In this document: in pieces, positions 37,374-48,977 of the stretch
Layout of the letters: each line of letters begins with the position of its first letter
Position numbering within the stretch: the first letter of the stretch is position 1
NCBI GenBank assembly: GCA_963828255.1
Contig: CAWHDZ010000011.1
Location: 1-64,000, forward strand
Direction of reading: 5' to 3'
Length of the DNA: 64,000 bases
Source of the DNA: an uncultured delta proteobacterium
Lineage (GTDB): Bacteria > Myxococcota > Myxococcia > Myxococcales > Anaeromyxobacteraceae
The notes under the pieces: generated by a model
Databases searched by the model: none
Seen by the model: only the letters and a program-made list of their open reading frames with translations
Told to the model about the DNA's origin: nothing
Position numbers and translations under genes: made by a program

Positions 37374-37501
37374 GCTGGCGGGATGCTATCGGCAGGGGGC
37401 GGAAGCGTCAAACGGCACCGCGGCGGCTTGACCCCCCCCTTTCCTGTCTTAGATCGACCATCATGGTCCCGTCGGATACCCTGGGTGCGAAGGAGTACGC
37501 C

Positions 37502-39970
37502 ATGTCGGAAAAGAAGAAGGAGGGTGCTGGCGCCCAGGTCGCCCCCGCGATGGGGCCACCGGCCCTCATCAACAAGGAGGACATCCCGCAGGTCCTCCCC
37601 ATCCTGCCCCTGCGCAACTCGGTCTTCTTCCCTGGAGGCGTGCTTCCACTCGCCGTGGGGCGGCAGAAGACCATCGCGCTCATCAAGGACGCCGTCCGCG
37701 ACGAGCAGGTCATCGGGGTCGTCACCCAGCGCCGCGCCGAGGAGGAAGACCCGGGCGCCGCCGACCTCTACACCGTCGGTACCGTGGCCCGCATCGTGAA
37801 GCTCCTCAAGATGGGGGAGGACAACTACTCCCTCGTGGTCCAGGGGCTCGCCCGGGTCCGGATCCTCGACCTGGTCCAGGAGACGCCCTACCTCAAGGCG
37901 CGCGTCGAGCCGGTGGAGGACAAGACCTCTGTGGACGAGGTCGAGGTCGAGGCCCTGGCCATCAACTTGAAGAAGCTGGCCCGCGAGGTGATCGAGCTCA
38001 TGCCGGAGCTGCCCACGGCGGCCACCGAGCTGGTGGACTCGATCACCCACCCCGGCCACCTCGCCGACCTCATCGCCGCCAACGTGGACGTCCCCATCGA
38101 GGAGAAGCAGCAGGTCCTCGAGACGGTGGACCTCAAGGCGCGCATGAAGCTCGTGCTCGAGCTGCTCAACCGCAAGCGGGAGATCCTCAAGCTCTCCAAC
38201 AAGATCGACAGCGCCGTGAAGGGCGAGATGTCGAAGACCCAGCGCGAGTACTACCTGCGCCAGCAGCTCAAGGCCATCAAGGAGGAGCTTGGCGAGCTGG
38301 GCGAGGAGGAGGAGGAGCTCGACGAGCTGGGCGAGCGGCTCAAGAAGGCCGGCCTCCCCCCCGATGTCGAGAAGGTCGCCAACAAGGAGCTCAACCGGTT
38401 GAAGGCCATCCCAACGGCCAGCTCCGAGCACGCCGTGGCCCGCACCTACCTCGACTGGATCGCCGACCTTCCCTGGTCCAAGCGCACCGAGGACAACCTC
38501 GACATCGAGAACGCGCGCCAGATCCTCGACGCCGATCACTACGGCCTCGACAAGATCAAGAAGCGCATCCTCGAGTACCTGGCGGTGCGCAAGCTGAAGA
38601 ACGACATGCGCGGCCCCATCCTCTGCTTCGTCGGGCCTCCCGGCGTGGGCAAGACCTCGCTCGGCCAGTCCATCGCCCGGGCCACCGGCCGCAAGTTCGT
38701 CCGCCTGAGCCTGGGCGGCGTGCGCGACGAGGCGGAGATCCGCGGCCACCGCCGCACCTATGTCGGCGCGCTGCCCGGCCGGATCATCCAGTCCATGAAG
38801 AAGGCGGGGGCGAACAACCCCACCATGATGCTCGACGAGATCGACAAGCTCGGCGCCGACTTCCGCGGCGACCCCAGCGCGGCGCTCCTCGAGGTGCTCG
38901 ATCCGGAGCAGAACTTCAGCTTCTCCGACCACTACCTCGACGTGGCCTTCGACCTCTCCAAGGTGATGTTCATCGCCACGGCGAACCTGCTCGACCCCAT
39001 CCCGTCGCCGCTCCGCGACCGAATGGAGATCCTCGAGCTGCCCGGCTACACCTTCGAGGAGAAGGTGCACATCGCCCAGCAGCACCTCGTGCCCAAGCAG
39101 CTGAAGGAGCACGGCCTCTCACCCGACGCGATCGAGTTCTCCGAGAAGGCGCTCATCAAGATCATCATGGCCTACACCCGGGAGGCCGGAGTCCGGAACC
39201 TCGAGCGGCGCATCGCCGACGTGGCGCGCGCCATCGCGGTCGAGGTGGCGGGGGGGAAGGTCCCTCCCGGCGCCCGGCGCTCCATCGAGGAGCTGGACCT
39301 CGCCGACATGCTCGGGCCGGAGAAGTTCTACAACGAGACGGCCGAGCGGACCGAGGTGGCCGGCGTGGCCACCGGTCTCGCCTGGACCGCGGCGGGCGGT
39401 GACCTGCTCTTCATCGAGGCCACCCGCATGCCGGGCAAGGGGTCGCTCACCCTCACCGGCCAGCTCGGCGACGTCATGAAGGAGTCGGCCCAGGCGGCGC
39501 TCTCCTACCTCCGCTCCAAGGCCGATCACCTGGGCATTCCCAGCAACTTCCTCGAGAAGACCGACATCCACATCCACTTCCCGGCCGGCGCCATCCCCAA
39601 GGACGGCCCCAGCGCCGGCGTGACCATCCTCACGGCGCTGGTGTCGCTGCTCACCGGGATCCGCGTCCGATCCGACGTGGCCATGACGGGCGAGGCCACG
39701 CTCCGCGGCCTCGTCCTCCCGGTCGGCGGCATCAAGGAGAAGGTCCTGGCCGCACACCGGGCGGGGATCAAGCGGGTCATCATGCCGGCCCGGAACGAGA
39801 AGGACCTGGTGGACGTCCCGGAGCAGGCCCGCAAGGAGCTCGAGTTCGTCTTCGCCACCCACATGGACGACGTCCTCGGCGCGGCCCTCGAGGAAAATCC
39901 GGTGGGCCGGAAGGTGCCGACGCCCCCTCCCCCGGAGGGTGGCGCCAAGCCCCCGGAAGTCCGCGCCTGA
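37502..39970 (+). CDS. lon: ATP-dependent Lon protease (LonD/BsgA type)
   Basis: [25 protein letters not shown]-terminus as in myxobacterial Lon[24 protein letters not shown]. Confidence 0.97.
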
Positions 39971-40074
39971 CCGGCGGGGGAAAGGACCGCCGCCCGGTGG
40001 CTCCTCCCCCGACATCCGTGTCATAGTGATCGGCGATCGATCGGACCGCCGTGTCGCGGTCCGGAGGGGGTGGA

Positions 40075-41895
40075 TTGATTCGCCGGATCGACCGCTACGA
40101 ACTCCTCGAACAGGTGGGAACCGGTGGAATGTCGGTCGTCTACCGTGGTCGCGACACGTCGCTCGACCGCGAGGTCGCGATCAAGGTGCTCCATCCCCAC
40201 CTCGCCACCAGGCCGGAGTCGCGAGCGCGGTTCTCCCGGGAGGCCAGGGCCGTGGCCCGCCTCTCCCACCCGGGCATCGTGGAGATCTACGACTACTCCG
40301 GGGACGAGAACCAGGAGAGCTGGCTCGTCACCGAGTTCGTCCGCGGCAGGACGCTTCGCGCCTTCGCCGACGATGGAGGGATCCCGCTGCCCGAGTGCGG
40401 TGCGCTCGTCGGGCTCGCACTCTCCGACGCGCTCGCGCACGCGCACGCGGCCGGGGTCATCCACCGGGATCTGAAGCCCGAGAACGTGATGGTCGCCGAG
40501 TTCGGAGGGCGACCGGCGGTGAAGCTCGCCGACTTCGGGATCGCCCGCATCCTCTCGCAGGACGACCGGATGACCATGACCGGCGCGATGGTCGGATCGC
40601 CCAACCACATGGCGCCCGAGGTGGTGGACGGGAAGGAGGCCGACGAGCGGTCGGACGTCTTCTCCCTGGGCACCATCCTCTACTGGCTCTGCACCGGGCG
40701 GCTGCCCTTCGAGGCGCCCAATCCCAGCGCCACGCTGCACCGGCTGGTCACCGGCGACTTCCCCGATCCACGTTCGGTGAACAGGGCCCTCGGCGAGCCC
40801 CTGGCCCGGCTCATCGCCTCCTGCCTGGAGCTCGACCCGGCAGCCCGCCCCGCCGGCGCCGCCCAGGTCCGCGATGCGCTGGCCGCCATCCTGCGGGACG
40901 ACGGCATCGACCGACCCGACGAGACCCTGACGGCATTCCTGGCCGATCGCCGGGGAACCGCCGAGGCGCTCCGCCCCCGCATCGTCGCGGCGCGCCTCCG
41001 GCGCGGGGAGGAACACCTGGCGCGCGGCGAGGTGGCGCTCGCCCTCGGCTCCTTCGACGGGGTCCTGGCCATCGAGCCCCGCCATCCCGCCGTGCTCGCG
41101 CGGCTCGCCGAGGTGGCGCGGTCCGACCGGCGAAGGCGCTTGCTGCGCCGGGGCGCGGTGGGCCTGGGAGTGCTCGTCGTGGCGGTGCTGGCCGTGATGG
41201 GGATCGCGCGCATCCCGGAGTCCGTCCCCGTGGCCGCCGGCGGGCCAGCCCCCGCCCTCACGGCGCAGCCGGGTCCCGCCGCCGCGGCGCCAGCGGTCCA
41301 GCCCGAGGCCCGGCCCGTGGCCGAACCCGCGGTCGGCGCCTCCGCGACCGCTCCGGTCGCACTGGCCCCGGCGCGCGTCCCGGTCGACCCTTCCCGGCCG
41401 GCGCCCGCCCGCAAGGGGCCCGCCCCCGTCAGCTTCACGGTGCACGTGCGCCCCTACGCCCAGCGCGCCCTCCTCGACGGCGTCGAGGTGGCCGCCGACG
41501 AGCAACGGGTGGTCTTCTCGCTCACGCCGGGAGGGCACCGGCTCCGCATCGAGCACCCCTGCTGCGAGCCGTACGATCGCGAGATCGACGCCGCCTCGGC
41601 CCAGCGGCTCGGCGAGCTCAAGGTCCCCCTGGTGCCGCGCCCGGCGACCCTGCGCATCGGCGGGGAGCCGACCACCCGCGTCTACCTGGACGGAAGGTTC
41701 CTGGGTTCGGCCGGCGACTCGCAGCGCGAGCCCTTCCGGATCCGGATGCCCTCCGACGGACCGAACCCCTACGAGGGTGAGGTCGGCCTGCGCCTCGAGG
41801 CCCCCGGGGGGCGGGCCACCAGCGCCACGGTGCGCTTGCGCGCCGGACAGGAGATCTCCGTCCCCGCCGTCCTGACACAGGATCCGCCCCGATGA
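40075..41895 (+). CDS. Membrane Ser/Thr protein kinase (Hanks type) with TPR-like linker and extracytoplasmic PEGA-like domains
   Basis: GTGGMSVVY, VAIK, HRDLKPEN, DFG, MAPE, and TM helix GAVGLGVLVVAVLAVMGI. TTG start after GGAGG. Confidence 0.93.
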   Translation: MIRRIDRYELLEQVGTGGMSVVYRGRDTSLDREVAIKVLHPHLATRPESRARFSREARAVARLSHPGIVEIYDYSGDENQESWLVTEFVRGRTLRAFADDGGIPLPECGALVGLALSDALAHAHAAGVIHRDLKPENVMVAEFGGRPAVKLADFGIARILSQDDRMTMTGAMVGSPNHMAPEVVDGKEADERSDVFSLGTILYWLCTGRLPFEAPNPSATLHRLVTGDFPDPRSVNRALGEPLARLIASCLELDPAARPAGAAQVRDALAAILRDDGIDRPDETLTAFLADRRGTAEALRPRIVAARLRRGEEHLARGEVALALGSFDGVLAIEPRHPAVLARLAEVARSDRRRRLLRRGAVGLGVLVVAVLAVMGIARIPESVPVAAGGPAPALTAQPGPAAAAPAVQPEARPVAEPAVGASATAPVALAPARVPVDPSRPAPARKGPAPVSFTVHVRPYAQRALLDGVEVAADEQRVVFSLTPGGHRLRIEHPCCEPYDREIDAASAQRLGELKVPLVPRPATLRIGGEPTTRVYLDGRFLGSAGDSQREPFRIRMPSDGPNPYEGEVGLRLEAPGGRATSATVRLRAGQEISVPAVLTQDPPR

Positions 41896-42734
41896 TCGCC
41901 CTCCTCCTCGTCCTGACGCTCGCCACCCCCGAGGCCGACGTGAAGCGCGCGCGCGACCGCTACGAGTTCGGGGCCTACGCCGACGCCGCCGGGGCGGCCC
42001 GGGAGATCCTGTCGCGCAGCACGGCGCTCCCCGAGCCCGTCGCGCTCGAGGCCTGGCGCATCCTGGGGCTCGCCGAGTACCAGCTCGGTGACCTGCCGGC
42101 CGCCCGCGACGCCTTCATCCACCTGCTCTCGATCGACCCCGATCAGACGCTCGACCCGTTCCTCGTCCCGCCGCCCATCGTGGAGTTCTTCGACAAGGTC
42201 CGGGCCGACGCGGAGCCGGAGCTGGCGCCGCTCCGGGAACGGAAGCGGCTGCTGGAGGAGCAGGGGCGGCTCGCGGAGGAGGCGAGGCGCAGGCTCCTCG
42301 CCGAGGAGGCGATCCGCTCCGGACCGCCATCGAAGGTCATCCTGGTGGAGGAGCACGTCTACATGCTCAACTTCCTGCCCTTCGGCGTCGGGCAGTTCCA
42401 GAACGGGGACACCACGAAGGGCATCGTCATCGCGGTGTCGCAGGTGGTGCTAGGCGCCATCAACCTGGGAGCGATCCTGGCGCACAACGCCATCGCCGAC
42501 GACCCCTCGCGCCGATGCCTGGTGAGCACCCCCACCAACTGCAGCAACCCGCCCATCCCCGACTCCGACCGGGCGCTGCTGCAGAACATCGACATCGTGA
42601 AGTACGTCTCCGCCGGCCTCTTCTGGGGGGTCTACGCCTACGGCGTGGTGGACTCGCTCGCCAACTTCGTCCCCCGCATCGAGACCGAGATCACCCCGGG
42701 GCGCACGGCTGTGAAGCTCTCGTGGGACTTCTAG
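41892..42734 (+). CDS. Exported TPR-containing protein with C-terminal membrane segments
   Basis: Signal peptide, TPR-like AWRILGLAEYQLGDLPAARDAF, NFLPFGVGQFQNG motif. ATGA overlap with the kinase gene. Confidence 0.8.
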   Translation: MIALLLVLTLATPEADVKRARDRYEFGAYADAAGAAREILSRSTALPEPVALEAWRILGLAEYQLGDLPAARDAFIHLLSIDPDQTLDPFLVPPPIVEFFDKVRADAEPELAPLRERKRLLEEQGRLAEEARRRLLAEEAIRSGPPSKVILVEEHVYMLNFLPFGVGQFQNGDTTKGIVIAVSQVVLGAINLGAILAHNAIADDPSRRCLVSTPTNCSNPPIPDSDRALLQNIDIVKYVSAGLFWGVYAYGVVDSLANFVPRIETEITPGRTAVKLSWDF

Positions 42735-42744
42735 GGGGGCGCCC

Positions 42745-44565
42745 GTGGCGGTACTGATCCTGAAGGACGGCGAAGGCGCCCCCCGGTCGGTCCGGCTCAC
42801 CCGCCGGATCAGCACCGTGGGACGGGACCCCGAAAGCGACCTGCACATCGACGACCCGGCGCTGCCTCCGACCGCGTTCCACGTCCTCGCCGATGGCGAC
42901 GCCTTCACCGTCGCAGCCCACGGCGGCTGCGAGCTGACGGTGAACGGGCGGCGCCGCACGACCTGCCGCCTGGCGGCCGGCGACGTCCTGCGCGCGGGGA
43001 GCCACGAGCTGGTCTTCTCCCCGCTCCCCCCGCCGCCCGCCCCGGCCGGACCGGCCGGACCGACGGTCCGGGAGGAGCCGCTCGTCCGCTTCTCCCGCCG
43101 GCTGCTCGAGGCCGGCTCGCTCGAGAGCCTTCTCGACGCCCTCCTCGACGCGCTCCTCGAGGTGACCCGCGCCGACAAGGGCTTCGTGATCGAGCTCTCC
43201 GACGGGAGGCCGGAGGTGCGTGCCTCCCGGAACGTCGCCCCGGTAAGCGTCGAGGACGCGGTCTCCCGCGTCTCCGACTCCATCCTCCAGAGGGTCCTCT
43301 CCACCCGCCGTCCGCTGGTGGTGGCCGACGCCCTCCACGACGCGGAGTGGTCGAGCTCCGCGTCGGTCGTGGACCTGCGGCTCCAGTCGGTGATGTGCGC
43401 GCCCCTCGTGGCCCGCGGGGAGATCTTCGGCGCCATCTACCTGGGCAACGACAGCGTCCGGAACCTCTTCGACGAGCGCTCCCTCGAGACCCTCACCGTC
43501 TTCTCGTCGCAGGCCTCGCTGCTCCTCCAGAACGCCCTCCTCCTCCGGGACCTCCGCCGCGAGAACGAGGCGCTCCGCGAGGCCATCGAGAGCCGGCGCT
43601 ACGGCGAGCTCCTGGGCGCCGGGCCGAGCATGCGCGAGGTCTACCGGCGCATCGAGAAGGTGGCGCCCACCGACGTCACCGTGCTCATCCAGGGGGAGAC
43701 CGGGACCGGGAAGGAGCTGGTGGCCCGGGAGATCCACCGGCGCTCCCCGCGCGGAGTGGGGCCGTTCGTGGCCGTGAACTGCGCGGCCATCCCCGAGGGG
43801 TTGCTGGAGTCCGAGCTCTTCGGCCACGTGAAGGGGGCCTTCACCGGCGCCGTGGCCAGCCGCGCCGGCCGCTTCCAGGCCGCCTCGGGCGGCACGCTCT
43901 TCCTCGACGAGATCGGGGAGATGCCGCCCTCGCTCCAGGTGAAGCTCCTGCGGGCCATCCAGGAGCGGGTCGTGCAGCGGGTCGGCGAGTCCCGCGGTGA
44001 GCCGGTGGACATCCGGGTGCTGGCAGCCACCAACCGGAACCTGGAGGACGAGGTCCGGTCCGGACGCTTCCGCGAGGATCTCTACTACCGCCTCCACGTC
44101 GTCACCATCGACCTGCCTCCTCTCCGGGAGCGCGGAGACGACGTCACGGTCCTGGCCCGCTGGTTCCTGCAGCGCTACGCGGACGAGTTCGATTCGCGAG
44201 CCCGCGGGTTCGCGCCCGGCGCGCTCGCCGCGCTGCGGCGGTACCCCTGGCCCGGCAACATCCGCGAGCTCGAGAACCGCGTGAAGAAGGCGGCCGTGCT
44301 GGCCGACGGCCCGCTGGTGACCGGCGAGGACCTCGACCTGGGCCAGGAGGGTCTCGAATCCACCCTGCCGCTGGCCGACGCGATCGAGGAGTTCCGGAAG
44401 CGCTACATCAGCGAGACGCTGGAGCGAAACGGCGGCAACCGCACCAAGACGGCGAAGGACCTCGACGTGGACCCACGCACCATCTTCCGCCACCTCGAGA
44501 AGCTCGAGTCGGAGCGGCGCGGCGGCCCTTTGCCGCCCGGAACGAAGACCGGAGGGGAACCTTGA
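42745..44565 (+). CDS. Sigma-54 enhancer-binding protein (FHA-like, GAF, AAA+, Fis-type HTH)
   Basis: GETGTGKE, ESELFGHVKGAFTGA, LFLDEIGE, FREDLYYRL, WPGNIRELEN, GGNRTKTA. Confidence 0.95.
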   Translation: MAVLILKDGEGAPRSVRLTRRISTVGRDPESDLHIDDPALPPTAFHVLADGDAFTVAAHGGCELTVNGRRRTTCRLAAGDVLRAGSHELVFSPLPPPPAPAGPAGPTVREEPLVRFSRRLLEAGSLESLLDALLDALLEVTRADKGFVIELSDGRPEVRASRNVAPVSVEDAVSRVSDSILQRVLSTRRPLVVADALHDAEWSSSASVVDLRLQSVMCAPLVARGEIFGAIYLGNDSVRNLFDERSLETLTVFSSQASLLLQNALLLRDLRRENEALREAIESRRYGELLGAGPSMREVYRRIEKVAPTDVTVLIQGETGTGKELVAREIHRRSPRGVGPFVAVNCAAIPEGLLESELFGHVKGAFTGAVASRAGRFQAASGGTLFLDEIGEMPPSLQVKLLRAIQERVVQRVGESRGEPVDIRVLAATNRNLEDEVRSGRFREDLYYRLHVVTIDLPPLRERGDDVTVLARWFLQRYADEFDSRARGFAPGALAALRRYPWPGNIRELENRVKKAAVLADGPLVTGEDLDLGQEGLESTLPLADAIEEFRKRYISETLERNGGNRTKTAKDLDVDPRTIFRHLEKLESERRGGPLPPGTKTGGEP

Positions 44566-45155
44566 ACCGCGCAGCCTCCCGTGTCGGCGCCCTCTTGCTC
44601 GCCACCCTGGCCGGGGGAGCGGTGCTGGGGGGGTGCCCCATCCCGCAGCCCCTCCCCGGCGTCGGTTCCATCGACGGCGGCCTGCCCATCACGCCCCCGC
44701 GCGTCCTGACGACGAGCGCGGAGCCGGGGCTCGCCATGACCGACTACCGGACGGCGGCGTCGGCGACGCCCTGCCCGCCCGGGTCGATCTTCGAGGTGTC
44801 GGCCACGGTGATCGACGAGAACAGCGAGGAGCCGGTGGAGGTCCGATGGTTCGTGGACTACGACCCGGACAACCAGCTGCAGCGCACCCCGCTCCAGATC
44901 GAGACCTTGCCGCCGCCCGCCGATCCCCAGCAGTTCCGGCGCTTCCCGAGCCCCTTCCCCTTCTCGCCCTGGGACTTCGATCGGCCCACCGAGCGCGTCC
45001 ACGTGGTCGAGTTGACGGTCTCGAACGGCTTCTTGCCCGTCGGCGCGGTCGTCCCGCCCGGGGACCTTCCCAACCGGACCGCCGCACCCGGCTACGAGGT
45101 GCAGATCTTCCGCTGGATCTTCCAGCCGTCGGCCACGGGCGGGTGCGGACCATAG
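44562..45155 (+). CDS. Hypothetical lipoprotein
   Basis: Lipobox VLGG-C, VRWFVDYD motif. TTGA overlap with the activator gene. Confidence 0.75.
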   Translation: MNRAASRVGALLLATLAGGAVLGGCPIPQPLPGVGSIDGGLPITPPRVLTTSAEPGLAMTDYRTAASATPCPPGSIFEVSATVIDENSEEPVEVRWFVDYDPDNQLQRTPLQIETLPPPADPQQFRRFPSPFPFSPWDFDRPTERVHVVELTVSNGFLPVGAVVPPGDLPNRTAAPGYEVQIFRWIFQPSATGGCGP

Positions 45156-45171: not shown

Positions 45172-45705
45172 CTATCGGGTGGGGTGGGCCGCCTCGCGGG
45201 CGTGGGACATGGCCTCGGCCGCGGCGCGGGCCAGGTCGCCGTTCTCGTCGGCGAAGCGGTTCACCTGGGCGGTATAGGCGCGGTGGAGCGCCAGCATGGC
45301 GTCGCGTGCCGCCGCCATGTCGGCCCGCTCCACGGCCCATTCACCCTTGGTCAAGTCGAGCCGGCAGCGGTCGGAGAGATCCTCCACCCGCTCCTCCCAG
45401 CGCGGCGCCCACTCGCGCCAGGCGGCCAGCGGCATGGGCCCCTCGAAGTTGGTGCCCATGGCCCAGGCGCGCTGGTTCTGCTCCACGTACAGGGCATCCA
45501 GGTCGTCCATGCAGACCCGGAGCGTCGCCCGGGTCGGGATGGCGGTCTTCGACGCCGGAGGGGCACGGCGCTCCCGCCCGCGGAGCGTCTTCACCACGCT
45601 CACCGCAAAGAAGCCGACCGCGATGGCGATGGCCAGGAAGTAGAGGATCCACGCGGCCATGCGATACGGCCGGAGCTTCGGGTCGCGCGTTGCCACGGCG
45701 CGCAA
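45172..45705 (-). CDS. Hypothetical membrane-anchored helical protein
   Basis: Single N-terminal TM helix (AAWILYFLAIAIAVGFFAV) followed by a helical domain. Confidence 0.7.
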   Translation of the reverse strand: MRAVATRDPKLRPYRMAAWILYFLAIAIAVGFFAVSVVKTLRGRERRAPPASKTAIPTRATLRVCMDDLDALYVEQNQRAWAMGTNFEGPMPLAAWREWAPRWEERVEDLSDRCRLDLTKGEWAVERADMAAARDAMLALHRAYTAQVNRFADENGDLARAAAEAMSHAREAAHPTR

Positions 45706-45736
45706 TTTGCCATCAGCGCCCCCGCGGAGTCCAGCG

Positions 45737-45770
45737 TTTCAAACGTGAAATGTTAAGATTCATTAATGAA
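45737..45770. promoter_or_regulatory. Tandem palindromic upstream activator sequences
   Basis: TTCA-AACG-TGAA (45738-45749) and TTCA-TTAA-TGAA (45759-45770), 21 bp apart. Confidence 0.7.
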
Positions 45771-45845
45771 ATTGGAATGTGACCCGACGCGGTCTCCTTT
45801 GGGGGTCCCGCATCGTGATTTCAGGGTGTTGGCCGGTGTCATGTA

Positions 45846-45862
45846 TTGGCCCCTACCTTGCT
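45846..45862 (+). promoter_or_regulatory. Sigma-54 (-24/-12) promoter
   Basis: TTGGCCCCTACCTTGCT with exact GG-N10-GC spacing and TTGC -12 element. Predicted start site about 45873. Confidence 0.8.
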
Positions 45863-45872
45863 AAATAAGCAA

Positions 45873-46019
45873 TTCGAAGCGCTGCGGGCCAGTGTAGGCA
45901 TCTCCCCCCCCGCATCCTGTGCCGGTCATGCGGCGCTTCGGCAACACGGGAGGAGGCTTCCGGTCGGGACAACGCGTCCGACATCCAGCAGCCGGCCGGA
46001 AGCCCGCCCACTCCCCTCC
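45873..46019 (+). ncRNA. Putative sigma-54-dependent small RNA
   Basis: Long hairpin 45875-45940 with a C-rich loop, a second 13-bp stem (45955-45967 with 45992-46004), and no credible ORF before the convergent mutL stop. Confidence 0.6.
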
Positions 46020-46020
46020 G

Positions 46021-47814
46021 TCAGCGCCGTCCTACCCGCCGCTCCAGCTCGGCCAGCGGCAGTTCCACGACCACCGGCCGGCCGTGTGGACACCTGGCCT
46101 TGAAGTCGATGGCGTCGAGCCCGTCGAGCAGGGCGCGGGCCTCCTCCCGGGTGAGGTCCTGGTTGGCGCGTACGGCGGCGTGGCAGGCCATGGTGGCGAG
46201 CAGACCGTCGAGGGCCTCGCCGACCGCGCTTCCCCGCCCCGCCTCCTCGACCTGCTCGGCCAGGTCGGTGAGGAGCGGACCCATGGCCGCCCCGCCGAGG
46301 AGCGCCGGTGCGCTCTTCACCGCGAAGGCGTCCCCGCCGAAGGGCTCGACTTCCAGGCCGACCGTCGCCAGGTCCCCCACGGCCCCCTCGACCATCCGCG
46401 CGGCCGAGGGCGTCAGCGTGACCACCGGAGGAACCAGGAAGGGCTGCACCTCGAGCTGGCGGTGGCGGAGCGCTTCCCGGAGGCGGTGGAAGAGGAGCCG
46501 CTCGTGGCTGGCGTGCTGGTCGATGACCACCAGCGCACCCCCGGGCGCCTCGCAGACCAGGTAGGTCCGGACGTGCTGGCCGACGTAGCGCATCGAGCCG
46601 AAGTAGCCGGCCGGCTGCGCGGGCGTCGGCCCGGGCGAGGAGGCGTGGGCTGCGCCAGGACCGGGACCGGCCGGAGCGGGAAACGGAAGCATGTCCCGCG
46701 ACCGCTCCGCCGTCCGCTCCCGGGCTGCCGCCAGGACGCCGGCGATGTCGTCCACGTCCGGCTCGGCGGCCACCGGGGCTGGAGGGAGGGCGCCATCGCC
46801 CCCGTGGTGGAGCCAGGGCGACGGGCGGAGCGCCTCGCTCACCGCGTGGTGGACGGCGTCGCTGGCGGCCCGCGCGTCCTGGAAGCGCACCTCGAGCTTC
46901 TGGGGGTGGACGTTCACGTCGACCCGGTCGAGCGGAAGCTCGAGGAAGAGGACGCCGGCCGGCTGCCGGCCAGCCGGGAGGGACCCGGCGTAGGCGCGCA
47001 GGACGCCGTAGGCCAGCGCCCGGTCGCGGATGAAGCGGCCGTTCACGAAGAGGTAGAGGCCGCGCGCCGTGGCCGCGGAGTGGTCGGGGGAGGTGACCAC
47101 CCCGTGGACGCGCACGTCTCCCCGGGCGGCGTCCACCCGCACGAGCCTGCGGGCCGCCTCCCGCCCCAGCGCGATGGCCGCCCGCTCCTCGGGAGAGGCG
47201 CCCGCCGCGGTGGCGATGGCCGCGCGCCCACCCGAACGGAGCGTGAACCCGACGTCGGGCCGGGCCAGCGCCACGCGGACCACCGCCTCGCTGGCGTGGC
47301 CGGACTCGGCCGGCGCCGACTTCATGAACTTCCGGCGGGCCGGGGTGTTGAAGAAGAGGTCGCGGACCTCGACCGTGGTGCCGCGCGCCCGCGCCACTTC
47401 CTCGACCGCCTCGACGCGCCCCCCCTCGAGCGCGATGCGCGTACCCACCACCGCGCCAGCGGGCCCTTCCGGACAGGTGTCGATGCGCATCCGGCAGACC
47501 GACGCGATCGCCGGGATGGCCTCGCCCCGGAAGCCCATGGTGGCGATGGAGGCGAGGCCGCCCGCGTCGCGGAGCTTGGAGGTGGCGTGGCGCTCCAGCG
47601 AGAGCAGGGCGTCCTCGCGCTCCATCCCCGACCCGTCGTCGGTGACCCGAACCAGGGTGAGCCCGCCGTCCTCCAGGTCCACCTGGATCGACCGGGCCCC
47701 CGCGTCGAGGGCGTTCTCGAGCAACTCCTTCACCACCGACGCCGGGCGCTCGACCACCTCACCGGCGGCGATCTGGTTCACGAGCCCGGGCGGGAGCACC
47801 TGGATGCGCGTCAC
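46021..47814 (-). CDS. mutL: DNA mismatch repair protein MutL
   Basis: [41 protein letters not shown] endonuclease motifs. Confidence 0.98.
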
Positions 47815-47879
47815 GCCTCCGTCGTACCACGCCGATCCGACCGTTTGACGGGGGCACCCTTCCCCTGTACGAAACCGGG

Positions 47880-48977
47880 ATGGCATCGAGGAAGCGGAAG
47901 CCCGCCCGCGCGGCCCAGCCCCGGCGTCCGGTCCTCGGAAACGATCCGTTCGAGCGGGGCGCGGCGGAGCGCCCGTCCACGCCCGACCCCGTTCCAGCGC
48001 CTCCTCCTGCCGCGGCCCGTCCCCCCGCGCCGCCCCGGGACGCGCCCCCGGAGCCGCCGCTGGGCGACGGCGAGGCCCGGCTCGCCGAGGTGGCTCGCTC
48101 GACCGGCGCCGCCGCCTATACCGAGGAGCTGCGCGAGCTGCTCGTCCGGCTGCGTCCGGCCCTGCGTGACGCGCTCGCGCCGCTGGCGGCGCTCGCCACC
48201 CTGCTCGGGTCCCCGGCCCGGCTCGACGAGCACGGCATGGACCCCGACCTGCTGGTCCGGGGGCGCGCGGTCCTCGACTTCTTCCTCGGGTCCTGGTGGC
48301 GCGTGGACGTCCACGGCGCCGACCTCTTGCCCGACGAGCCCTTCGTGCTGGTGGCGAACCACGGAGGAACGGTCCACTGGGACGCGGCCGTGCTCCGGAC
48401 CACGCTGGCGCGCCAGGTCACCCCGCGGGAGCTGCGTCCGCTGCTCGACCCGCGCGCACTCCAGGCCCCCCTGGTCGGCCCGTTCCTGGTCCGGATGGGC
48501 GCGGCGCCGCTGAGGGCCGACGTGGCGCTCTCGCTCCTCGACCGCGGCTCGAGCATCTGCCTCTTCCCGGAGGGACCGCGCGAGGAGCCTCGCCCCTGGG
48601 CGGACCGCTACCGGGTGACCCGCTTCGGACGCGGCGGTTTCGCCCGCATCGCCGCACTGGCGCGGGCGCCCATCGTCCCCTGCGCCATCGTGGGGAGCGA
48701 GGAGGCGGCGGCGCCCTTCGACCGCCGGGGGTGGATGGCCGAGTCGCTCCACCTGCCCCTGCTCGCGCTGGCCCCGCCGCTGCCGCTGGCCGGGCTGCTC
48801 TCCTGGCTCCCGCTGCCCTCCCGGTGGTCGATCCGGTTCGGCCAGCCCGTCGCTCCGCCCCCGCCCGAGCGGGCCGAGGACGCGGTGGCGGTCGCAGCCG
48901 CGGGAGAGCGGGTGCGCGCCGAGCTACAGCGCATGCTCGACGCCGACCTCGCGTCCCGCCGCTCCGTCTTCCTTTGA
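47880..48977 (+). CDS. Lysophospholipid acyltransferase family protein
   Basis: [35 protein letters not shown]. Confidence 0.9.

Follow-up and report, generated by a model that had tools for sequence, protein, structure and literature searches.

We identified a predicted small RNA gene between the genes for a conserved hypothetical membrane protein and MutL in an uncultured member of the family Anaeromyxobacteraceae. The gene lies within a 64,000-nucleotide stretch of genomic DNA (the window, in whose coordinates all positions are given). The explanation that we consider likely as a whole is that this gene is a relocated duplicate of pxr, that its promoter is activated by the PxrK/PxrR kinase–regulator pair, and that its RNA pairs through a C-run loop with ribosome-binding regions. 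Pxr is the best-studied myxobacterial small RNA, and the mapping of its targets and mechanism is just beginning. A one-hairpin relative that has been relocated yet apparently remains PxrR-controlled would push back the origin of the system and name the PxrR enhancer motif. It would thereby also extend the Pxr system to a family for which the open literature (titles, opening parts of abstracts and passages, with subscription papers outside this scope) describes neither the RNA nor a pxr homolog.

Organization of the locus

The gap between the two flanking genes holds an enhancer pair, a sigma-54 promoter and two hairpins. The features are as follows.

42745..44565, + strand: FHA-like/GAF/sigma-54 activator gene, 1.2 kb upstream of the RNA unit
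45172..45705, - strand: divergent conserved hypothetical membrane protein gene, left flank and synteny anchor, found in 82 of 92 family genomes
45737..45750, no strand: enhancer site 1, palindrome TTTCA-N4-TGAAA, predicted PxrR-binding site
45759..45770, no strand: enhancer site 2, TTCA-N4-TGAA, predicted PxrR-binding site
45819..45831, + strand: IHF-like 13-mer matching 8 of 9 consensus positions, weakly supported
45847..45861, + strand: sigma-54 -24/-12 promoter TGGC-N7-TTGC, predicted +1 at about 45873
45874..45941, + strand: hairpin 1, conserved core of the predicted RNA and putative counterpart of Pxr stem-loop 1 (from covariation and an RNA-only model)
45899..45915, + strand: open loop with a C8 run (45904-45911), predicted anti-Shine-Dalgarno seed
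45955..46004, + strand: hairpin 2, a 13-bp stem (arms 45955-45967 and 45992-46004), likely a 3' stabilising or terminating stem
46021..47886, - strand: mutL, convergent right flank, with its stop at 46021

A preliminary description of this DNA had proposed twin palindromes 21 bp apart upstream of a GG-N10-GC promoter, and both elements were found where it had placed them. The TTCA-N4-TGAA sites that begin at 45738 and 45759 are the only two in the 64-kb window, and as an exact tandem pair they are unique in the 4.3-Mb genome (six single sites overall). The window unit is also the sole tandem enhancer in this genome with a sigma-54 promoter after it (two tandem pairs found). The promoter sequence itself, TGGC-N7-TTGC, has no other occurrence in the window, and an rpoN gene is present in the genome.

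The left-flank protein is 177 aa long, though probably shorter with a start near 45661, carries an N-terminal hydrophobic segment and matched no Pfam family. The region at 37463-45155 holds an array of genes for a lon protease, a Ser/Thr kinase, a TPR protein, the FHA-like/GAF sigma-54 activator and a putative lipoprotein (the lon label comes from a translation judged by eye and the kinase, TPR and activator labels from a domain search). This gene run may constitute a kinase-to-FHA signalling unit.

Conservation at the mutL site

Using the left-flank protein as an anchor, we examined 50 mutL-site loci of the Anaeromyxobacteraceae, including the window's own. In 36 of these, a sigma-54 promoter is followed by a 60-70 nt hairpin that contains a C6-C9 run 37-43 nt past the -12 box, the presence of the C run having been one selection criterion. 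One further locus holds a degenerate copy, and mutL lacks the module in the remaining 13, two of which are cut by contig ends. Within the genus, BLAST located the complete module at the equivalent position in 8 of 13 genomes; in the window's own genome it revealed no second copy. No copy was found at the mutL sites of five genomes from three other families (f6, f2 and f5) or behind mutL in the three Myxococcaceae-type genomes that were checked.

The enhancer pair was no part of the selection criteria and is nonetheless retained in all 36 copies, with site 1 at -107 to -113 and site 2 at -87 to -94 from the promoter GG. Across these copies the two palindromes take the form T(T/G)C(A/G)-N4-(T/C)G(A/C)A. 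The GGC and TTG of the promoter are invariant in the 36 aligned copies, which had been chosen by that motif. The preliminary description had read the region as a canonical arrangement of upstream activating sites, IHF site and -24/-12 promoter. The enhancer, promoter and spacing of that layout are conserved; the IHF-like site, whose best consensus match averages 6.7 of 9 positions over the 36 copies against 6.0 in shuffles (at least 8 in 8 of 36), is the weakest part of the module.

Two other features of these loci deserve mention. The mutL-site copies of genus g8 (L050-L059) are far more diverged than their pxrR-site counterparts in these genomes, suggesting an altered target set; they retain the enhancer, promoter, C loop and hairpin 2. 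In a pattern search, 18 of the 50 loci (L040-L042, L045-L053, L056-L060 and L069) were found to contain, between the left-flank gene and the enhancer, a conserved opposite-strand ORF that encodes about 50 residues and has a separate sigma-54-like promoter roughly 15-30 nt upstream. This ORF is absent from the window and remains in G074, a genome in which pxrKR and the RNA are lost, and is therefore probably driven by another activator.

Structure of the predicted RNA

The long hairpin at +1 and the 13-bp stem after it, both anticipated in the preliminary description, were recovered at 45874-45941 and 45955-46004. The fold strength of the single sequence alone is modest: on the + strand, z scores were -2.19 for hairpin 1 (equalled by 5 of 200 shuffles), -2.36 for hairpin 2 (6 of 200) and -1.71 for the whole 148 nt (12 of 200), and the - strand gave 0.00 and -0.45. 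Comparative data lift the structure clearly above chance. On a MAFFT alignment, 12 of 18 hairpin 1 pairs show two-sided changes, a covariation score reached by none of 500 shuffles, and 78% of cells are paired compared with 42-56% in slid controls. On a model-fitted alignment, which leans towards structure, all 18 pairs show such changes. RNAalifold recovers just 8 basal pairs from the MAFFT alignment because the inner stems misalign. A promoter-free model (R3), built from 25 of the 36 RNA bodies with the diverged g8 and g10 copies left out, scores the window's hairpin 1 at 67.4 bits on the + strand and 17.5 bits on the - strand.

For hairpin 2, an alignment of 25 copies picked for possessing it has 95.7% of cells paired and two-sided changes at 8 of 13 pairs. 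Counts of G-U versus A-C cells (24:2 in hairpin 2; 88:33 in hairpin 1 over all copies and 43:23 at the mutL site) favour the + strand for both stems. The covariation of hairpin 2 and its G-U excess thus indicate that this stem belongs to the RNA rather than being a mutL terminator.

The conserved core of the RNA family is the first hairpin of about 65-70 nt. In many genera this hairpin ends straight in a U-tract, and in several the second stem is absent. In the window's genus, hairpin 1 lacks a U-tract and is followed by hairpin 2. This arrangement and the + strand covariation of hairpin 2 make the previously suggested length of about 145 nt plausible for the window's genus. The comparison of mutL-downstream regions that had been recommended as a check found the promoter and hairpin 1 conserved in 36 of 50 loci, with both stems covarying. 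Together with the conserved enhancer and spacing and the presence of rpoN, this supports the original proposal of a sigma-54-controlled non-coding RNA, and we assign a high likelihood to the predicted small RNA gene being real.

Relationship to Pxr

Pxr has been portrayed as a recent gatekeeper of fruiting-body development that is always found beside pxrR, in passages of two papers (PMC5568312, PMC5684412), and one of these passages places all examined pxr homologs between nla19 and an NADH dehydrogenase gene (PMC5568312). A passage elsewhere describes its processing from a long to a short form with an RNase D step (PMC10217877). The preliminary description had cited Pxr only as a precedent from a different gene context and had called for a search with the Pxr model. 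That search gave no match at the locus: an Rfam scan of 45400-46400 returned no Pxr match at E values up to 10, and four chance matches, none near its cut-off, were discarded. On the window's own genome, RF01812 gave two weak matches in coding regions away from the window copy (best 24.7 bits), compared with 110-135 bits on four control genomes and a gathering score of 80 bits.

The window RNA is not canonical Pxr. It does not reach the 80-bit gathering score of RF01812. Pxr lies between pxrR/nla19 and an NADH dehydrogenase gene, whereas the window copy sits behind mutL, unlinked to pxrR. Pxr consists of three stem-loops (SL1-SL2-SL3) and the window RNA of one long hairpin of about 28 bp with an optional second stem, which by inspection bears no likeness to SL3. 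The hosts also differ, being Myxococcus xanthus and relatives for Pxr and, for the window RNA, the Anaeromyxobacteraceae, a family not known to form fruiting bodies.

Beyond these differences, the two RNAs have a good deal in common. Both have an upstream sigma-54 promoter, a twin palindromic enhancer at the same distance, and a 5' hairpin that starts with GAAG and carries a C7-8 loop. The same palindrome pair stands at -108/-109 and -89/-90 in the promoters of all four true pxr loci that we inspected, the motif at these loci being our own reading without a published source. True pxr genes (fetched with RF01812) sit behind the orthologous regulator, in the same place as a second copy of the window RNA found in other genomes of the family, so that the position characteristic of Pxr is occupied there by a paralog. 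Tandem duplicates occur in some relatives, as a passage on Pxr reports for Cystobacter (PMC5568312).

We used two further models to place the RNA. R1, which comprises the promoter and hairpin 1 and was built from mutL-site copies alone, gives a single match in the window's own genome, matches in 73 of 92 family genomes and, across the order, matches in 71 of 151 genomes with none among the 44 of family f6 (genome scale). Its matches include copies directly behind pxrR orthologs and facing nuoN, with scores of up to 56 bits, and it aligns in register with all four true pxr loci at weak scores of 27.6-30.2 bits. The promoter-free R3 likewise recognizes pxrR-site copies (27.9-36.7 bits, against a best off-target score of 19.4 bits in the window). 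R3 gives no significant match to Myxococcaceae-type Pxr (L115 scores 16.2 bits with an E value of 0.5, and L116-L118 do not appear among its matches) and reaches at best 21.8 bits on the tandem Pxr copies of G189; it also misses the diverged g8 and g10 mutL-site copies, both of which lie outside its training set. A phylum search with R2 matched 34 of 43 f6 genomes, and these matches were set aside as evidence because the R2 training set included four Pxr rows.

Pxr SL1 and the window's hairpin 1 are alike in the design of loop and basal stem, and the sequence link between them runs through the pxrR-site paralog. In an ungapped comparison over 31 positions, one such copy (L126) shares 25 with the Pxr SL1 core; the best chance match on either strand of the window's own genome shares 22. 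The window copy agrees with this bridging copy at 20 of 31 positions and with the Pxr core itself at 16 of 31. There are thus two good links, from window copy to pxrR-site copy and from there to Pxr, and a weak direct comparison. Taking enhancer, paralog and model together, we regard common descent of the window RNA and Pxr as quite likely, and the window RNA is probably a relocated Pxr paralog. The earlier view of Pxr as a mere precedent was right about the gene context and fell short of what appears to be a closer tie, given the enhancer, the bridging paralog and the co-loss with PxrR described below.

At one diverged pxrR-site copy (L237 in G014), the enhancer, promoter and C7 loop are intact; it was detected by motif and reported by neither model at genome scale. 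At six loci (L100, L101, L112, L114, L126 and L244), a small conserved ORF that by eye resembles a lone receiver domain begins immediately behind the pxrR-site copy's U-tract.

Co-occurrence with PxrK/PxrR

The window's own genome encodes, on a separate contig (C27), a PAS-GAF histidine kinase and a REC-AAA-HTH regulator beside nuoN. The regulator is 61% identical to the one upstream of a true pxr. The M. xanthus PxrK/PxrR pair is MXAN_1077/1078 (Nla19/SpdR). Only 2 nt separate pxrR from nuoN in the window's genome, and the classical pxr site is therefore empty there; among eight genus-mates, the end of pxrR could be located in 7, and neither enhancer nor promoter was found at this site in any of these.

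We compared the presence of RNA and regulator in 54 family genomes with a completeness of 90% or more and a contamination of no more than 5%, a set that leaves out the window's own genome (6.6% contamination). Both are present in 46 genomes and both absent in 6, with one genome having PxrR only and one the RNA only. The RNA is thus absent from 6 of 7 genomes without PxrR versus 1 of 47 with it. A model match was obtained in 47 of the 54 genomes, and a PxrR ortholog in 47 (46 plus G082, where it is cut by a contig end). The PxrR-only genome (G005) is a fragmented assembly in which the left-flank gene is missing too, and the RNA-only genome (G100) has no PxrR match and retains a degenerate copy.

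In five of the six double-negative genomes, pxrKR is cleanly absent: another gene abuts nuoN, the best activator match is at most 51% identical, the best R2 score is 21.6 bits, and the mutL site lacks the module. In the sixth (G068), the module is missing at mutL by pattern. The double losses are spread over three genera and are not fully independent, and the models miss diverged copies (such as that of G014), so the Fisher p of 2e-6 overstates the co-loss. Genomic co-loss supports a putative dependence of the RNA on PxrK/PxrR. Seven genomes (G028, G090, G076, G105, G108, G024 and G032) have an empty mutL site and retain the pxrR-site copy; that one or the other copy is kept while PxrR is kept fits duplicates under one regulator.

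The sites of pxrKR loss can be seen directly at L145-L149 (G003, G002, G011, G111 and G074), where pxrK-pxrR is gone and the upstream gene directly abuts nuoN. From its translation this gene is presumably selB-like, or Hsp33-like in G074.

Proposed mechanism and alternative explanations

PxrK/PxrR, encoded on C27 next to nuoN, would act in trans on the window promoter. Phosphorylated PxrR would bind the twin palindromes, possibly aided by IHF, and activate sigma-54 polymerase. The resulting RNA would expose its C run and pair with G-rich ribosome-binding regions without Hfq, for which no gene was found in the window's own genome, and such pairing would likely repress translation of the bound mRNAs. 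By analogy with Pxr, we find it reasonably probable that the RNA pairs with mRNA in this way. RNAIII and RsaE of Staphylococcus aureus are C-rich-loop anti-Shine-Dalgarno RNAs in which an unpaired C-rich loop seeds on G-rich ribosome-binding sites, the principle proposed here; they belong to a different phylum, have a different promoter type, and no homology to the window RNA was found. For Pxr itself, mutation or deletion of the SL1 loop abolishes function and leaves accumulation unaffected, according to a passage in PMC5684412. MXnc1, a candidate small RNA of M. xanthus, is likewise described in a preprint (10.1101/2025.09.11.675593) as intergenic and as pairing near Shine-Dalgarno sequences without Hfq.

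The same gene under the same PxrR control could instead act as a decoy or sponge, its C-run loop binding a protein or another RNA, an alternative that is improbable but the best of those we weighed. Duplex ranking over 3560 start regions, as predicted by a rough in-house gene caller, gave no outlier and no specific target. Pairing at or below -22 kcal/mol occurs in 133 of these regions; the controls gave 92 (coding interior) and 85 (antisense). The G-richness of Shine-Dalgarno sequences alone explains this slight surplus, and a pure C run has poor specificity in a genome of 71% GC. A passage on SL1 leaves target pairing and chaperone binding both open (PMC5684412). Against a decoy, a figure legend in the TRIC-seq preprint (Fig. 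6e of 10.1101/2025.09.11.675593) places Pxr contacts near the Shine-Dalgarno sequences of several mRNAs, and G6+ runs in the window's own genome are most frequent within the last 10 nt ahead of predicted starts (46 versus 12-26 in other upstream bins). A G7 run before nuoM was rejected as a target: it consists of glycine codons ending the upstream gene and is kept in genomes without the RNA (19 of 20 loci matched).

We consider it still less probable that the window RNA is a C-loop RNA that evolved independently, is similar to Pxr in appearance only, and depends on a different activator, for instance the FHA-GAF protein encoded 1.2 kb upstream. The low direct identity to Pxr, the different locus, the proximity of an activator gene, and the C-loop RNAs that occur without this enhancer beside another activator (see below) would all fit such an origin. 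However, the enhancer and its spacing are the same as at pxr promoters, and the RNA-only model links the window RNA to the pxrR-site copies. The FHA-GAF activator is also kept in G002, G003, G011 and G074, all of which lack the module, whereas pxrKR is lost with the module; it is thus disfavoured as the driver of the promoter.

The remaining reading, in which no trans-acting RNA exists and the hairpins terminate mutL or form an antisense element, or a short peptide is translated from the transcript, is very improbable and largely refuted: the mutL end lies 16 nt from hairpin 2 and an ATG occurs in the 3' arm of the window's hairpin 1, but the strand counts and covariation favour a + strand RNA, any ATG is present in just 11 of 36 copies with no common frame, the promoter-hairpin unit also occurs away from mutL (including tandem arrays with a promoter each), and mutL stands without it in 13 of 50 loci (two cut by contig ends).

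Returning to the relocated, PxrR-activated duplicate, expression was probed by a read search with L126, the pxrR-site copy of a relative, in place of the window copy, and it gave assembled contigs only. It concerned four RNA runs. In runs X7 and X4, short contigs with other flanks hold the hairpin body (2499-2566 and 2440-2567, respectively), and X2 reaches the promoter as well, so that a DNA origin is possible.

Wider distribution and history

The order has copies in further families as well, and some of these are arranged in tandem, each with a promoter. The likely history would begin with a one-hairpin ancestral RNA behind pxrR, which would have been duplicated with its whole control region behind mutL in the Anaeromyxobacteraceae; subsequent losses would have removed either copy, or both along with pxrKR. 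We lean towards the view that Pxr, instead of having arisen recently for fruiting, is a derived representative of an old and mobile RNA family with a single hairpin and a C loop. Members of this family would be the main, or even the only, output of PxrK/PxrR throughout the order and outside it. If so, the window would show the gene relocating together with its enhancer and taking the place of the original copy, the PxrR binding site would be defined, and a minimal 65-nt Pxr would be at hand for finding ancestral targets. The family would offer natural pairs of genomes with and without the RNA, and the pre-developmental role of Pxr and its active seed would become directly testable questions.

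Outside the class, the AT-rich genome G209 (L212, on G209:C128) holds kinase, regulator, enhancer pair, promoter and hairpin in the classical order, with a regulator that is 68% identical; either an old origin or horizontal transfer could account for this unit.

Tandem arrays of two to five promoter-plus-hairpin units were observed at L130 (G057), L217 (G189), L129 (G051), L218 (G038) and L210 (G215), and the three tandem copies in G189 are identical across the modelled part. At four other loci (L206, L207, L213 and L215), paired C-loop hairpins stand behind a sigma-54 promoter and divergent from a different activator, which is 41-46% identical to PxrR; the palindrome pair is absent. These hairpins possibly represent a separate family, and their occurrence beside another activator without the enhancer suggests that the design can arise or spread separately.
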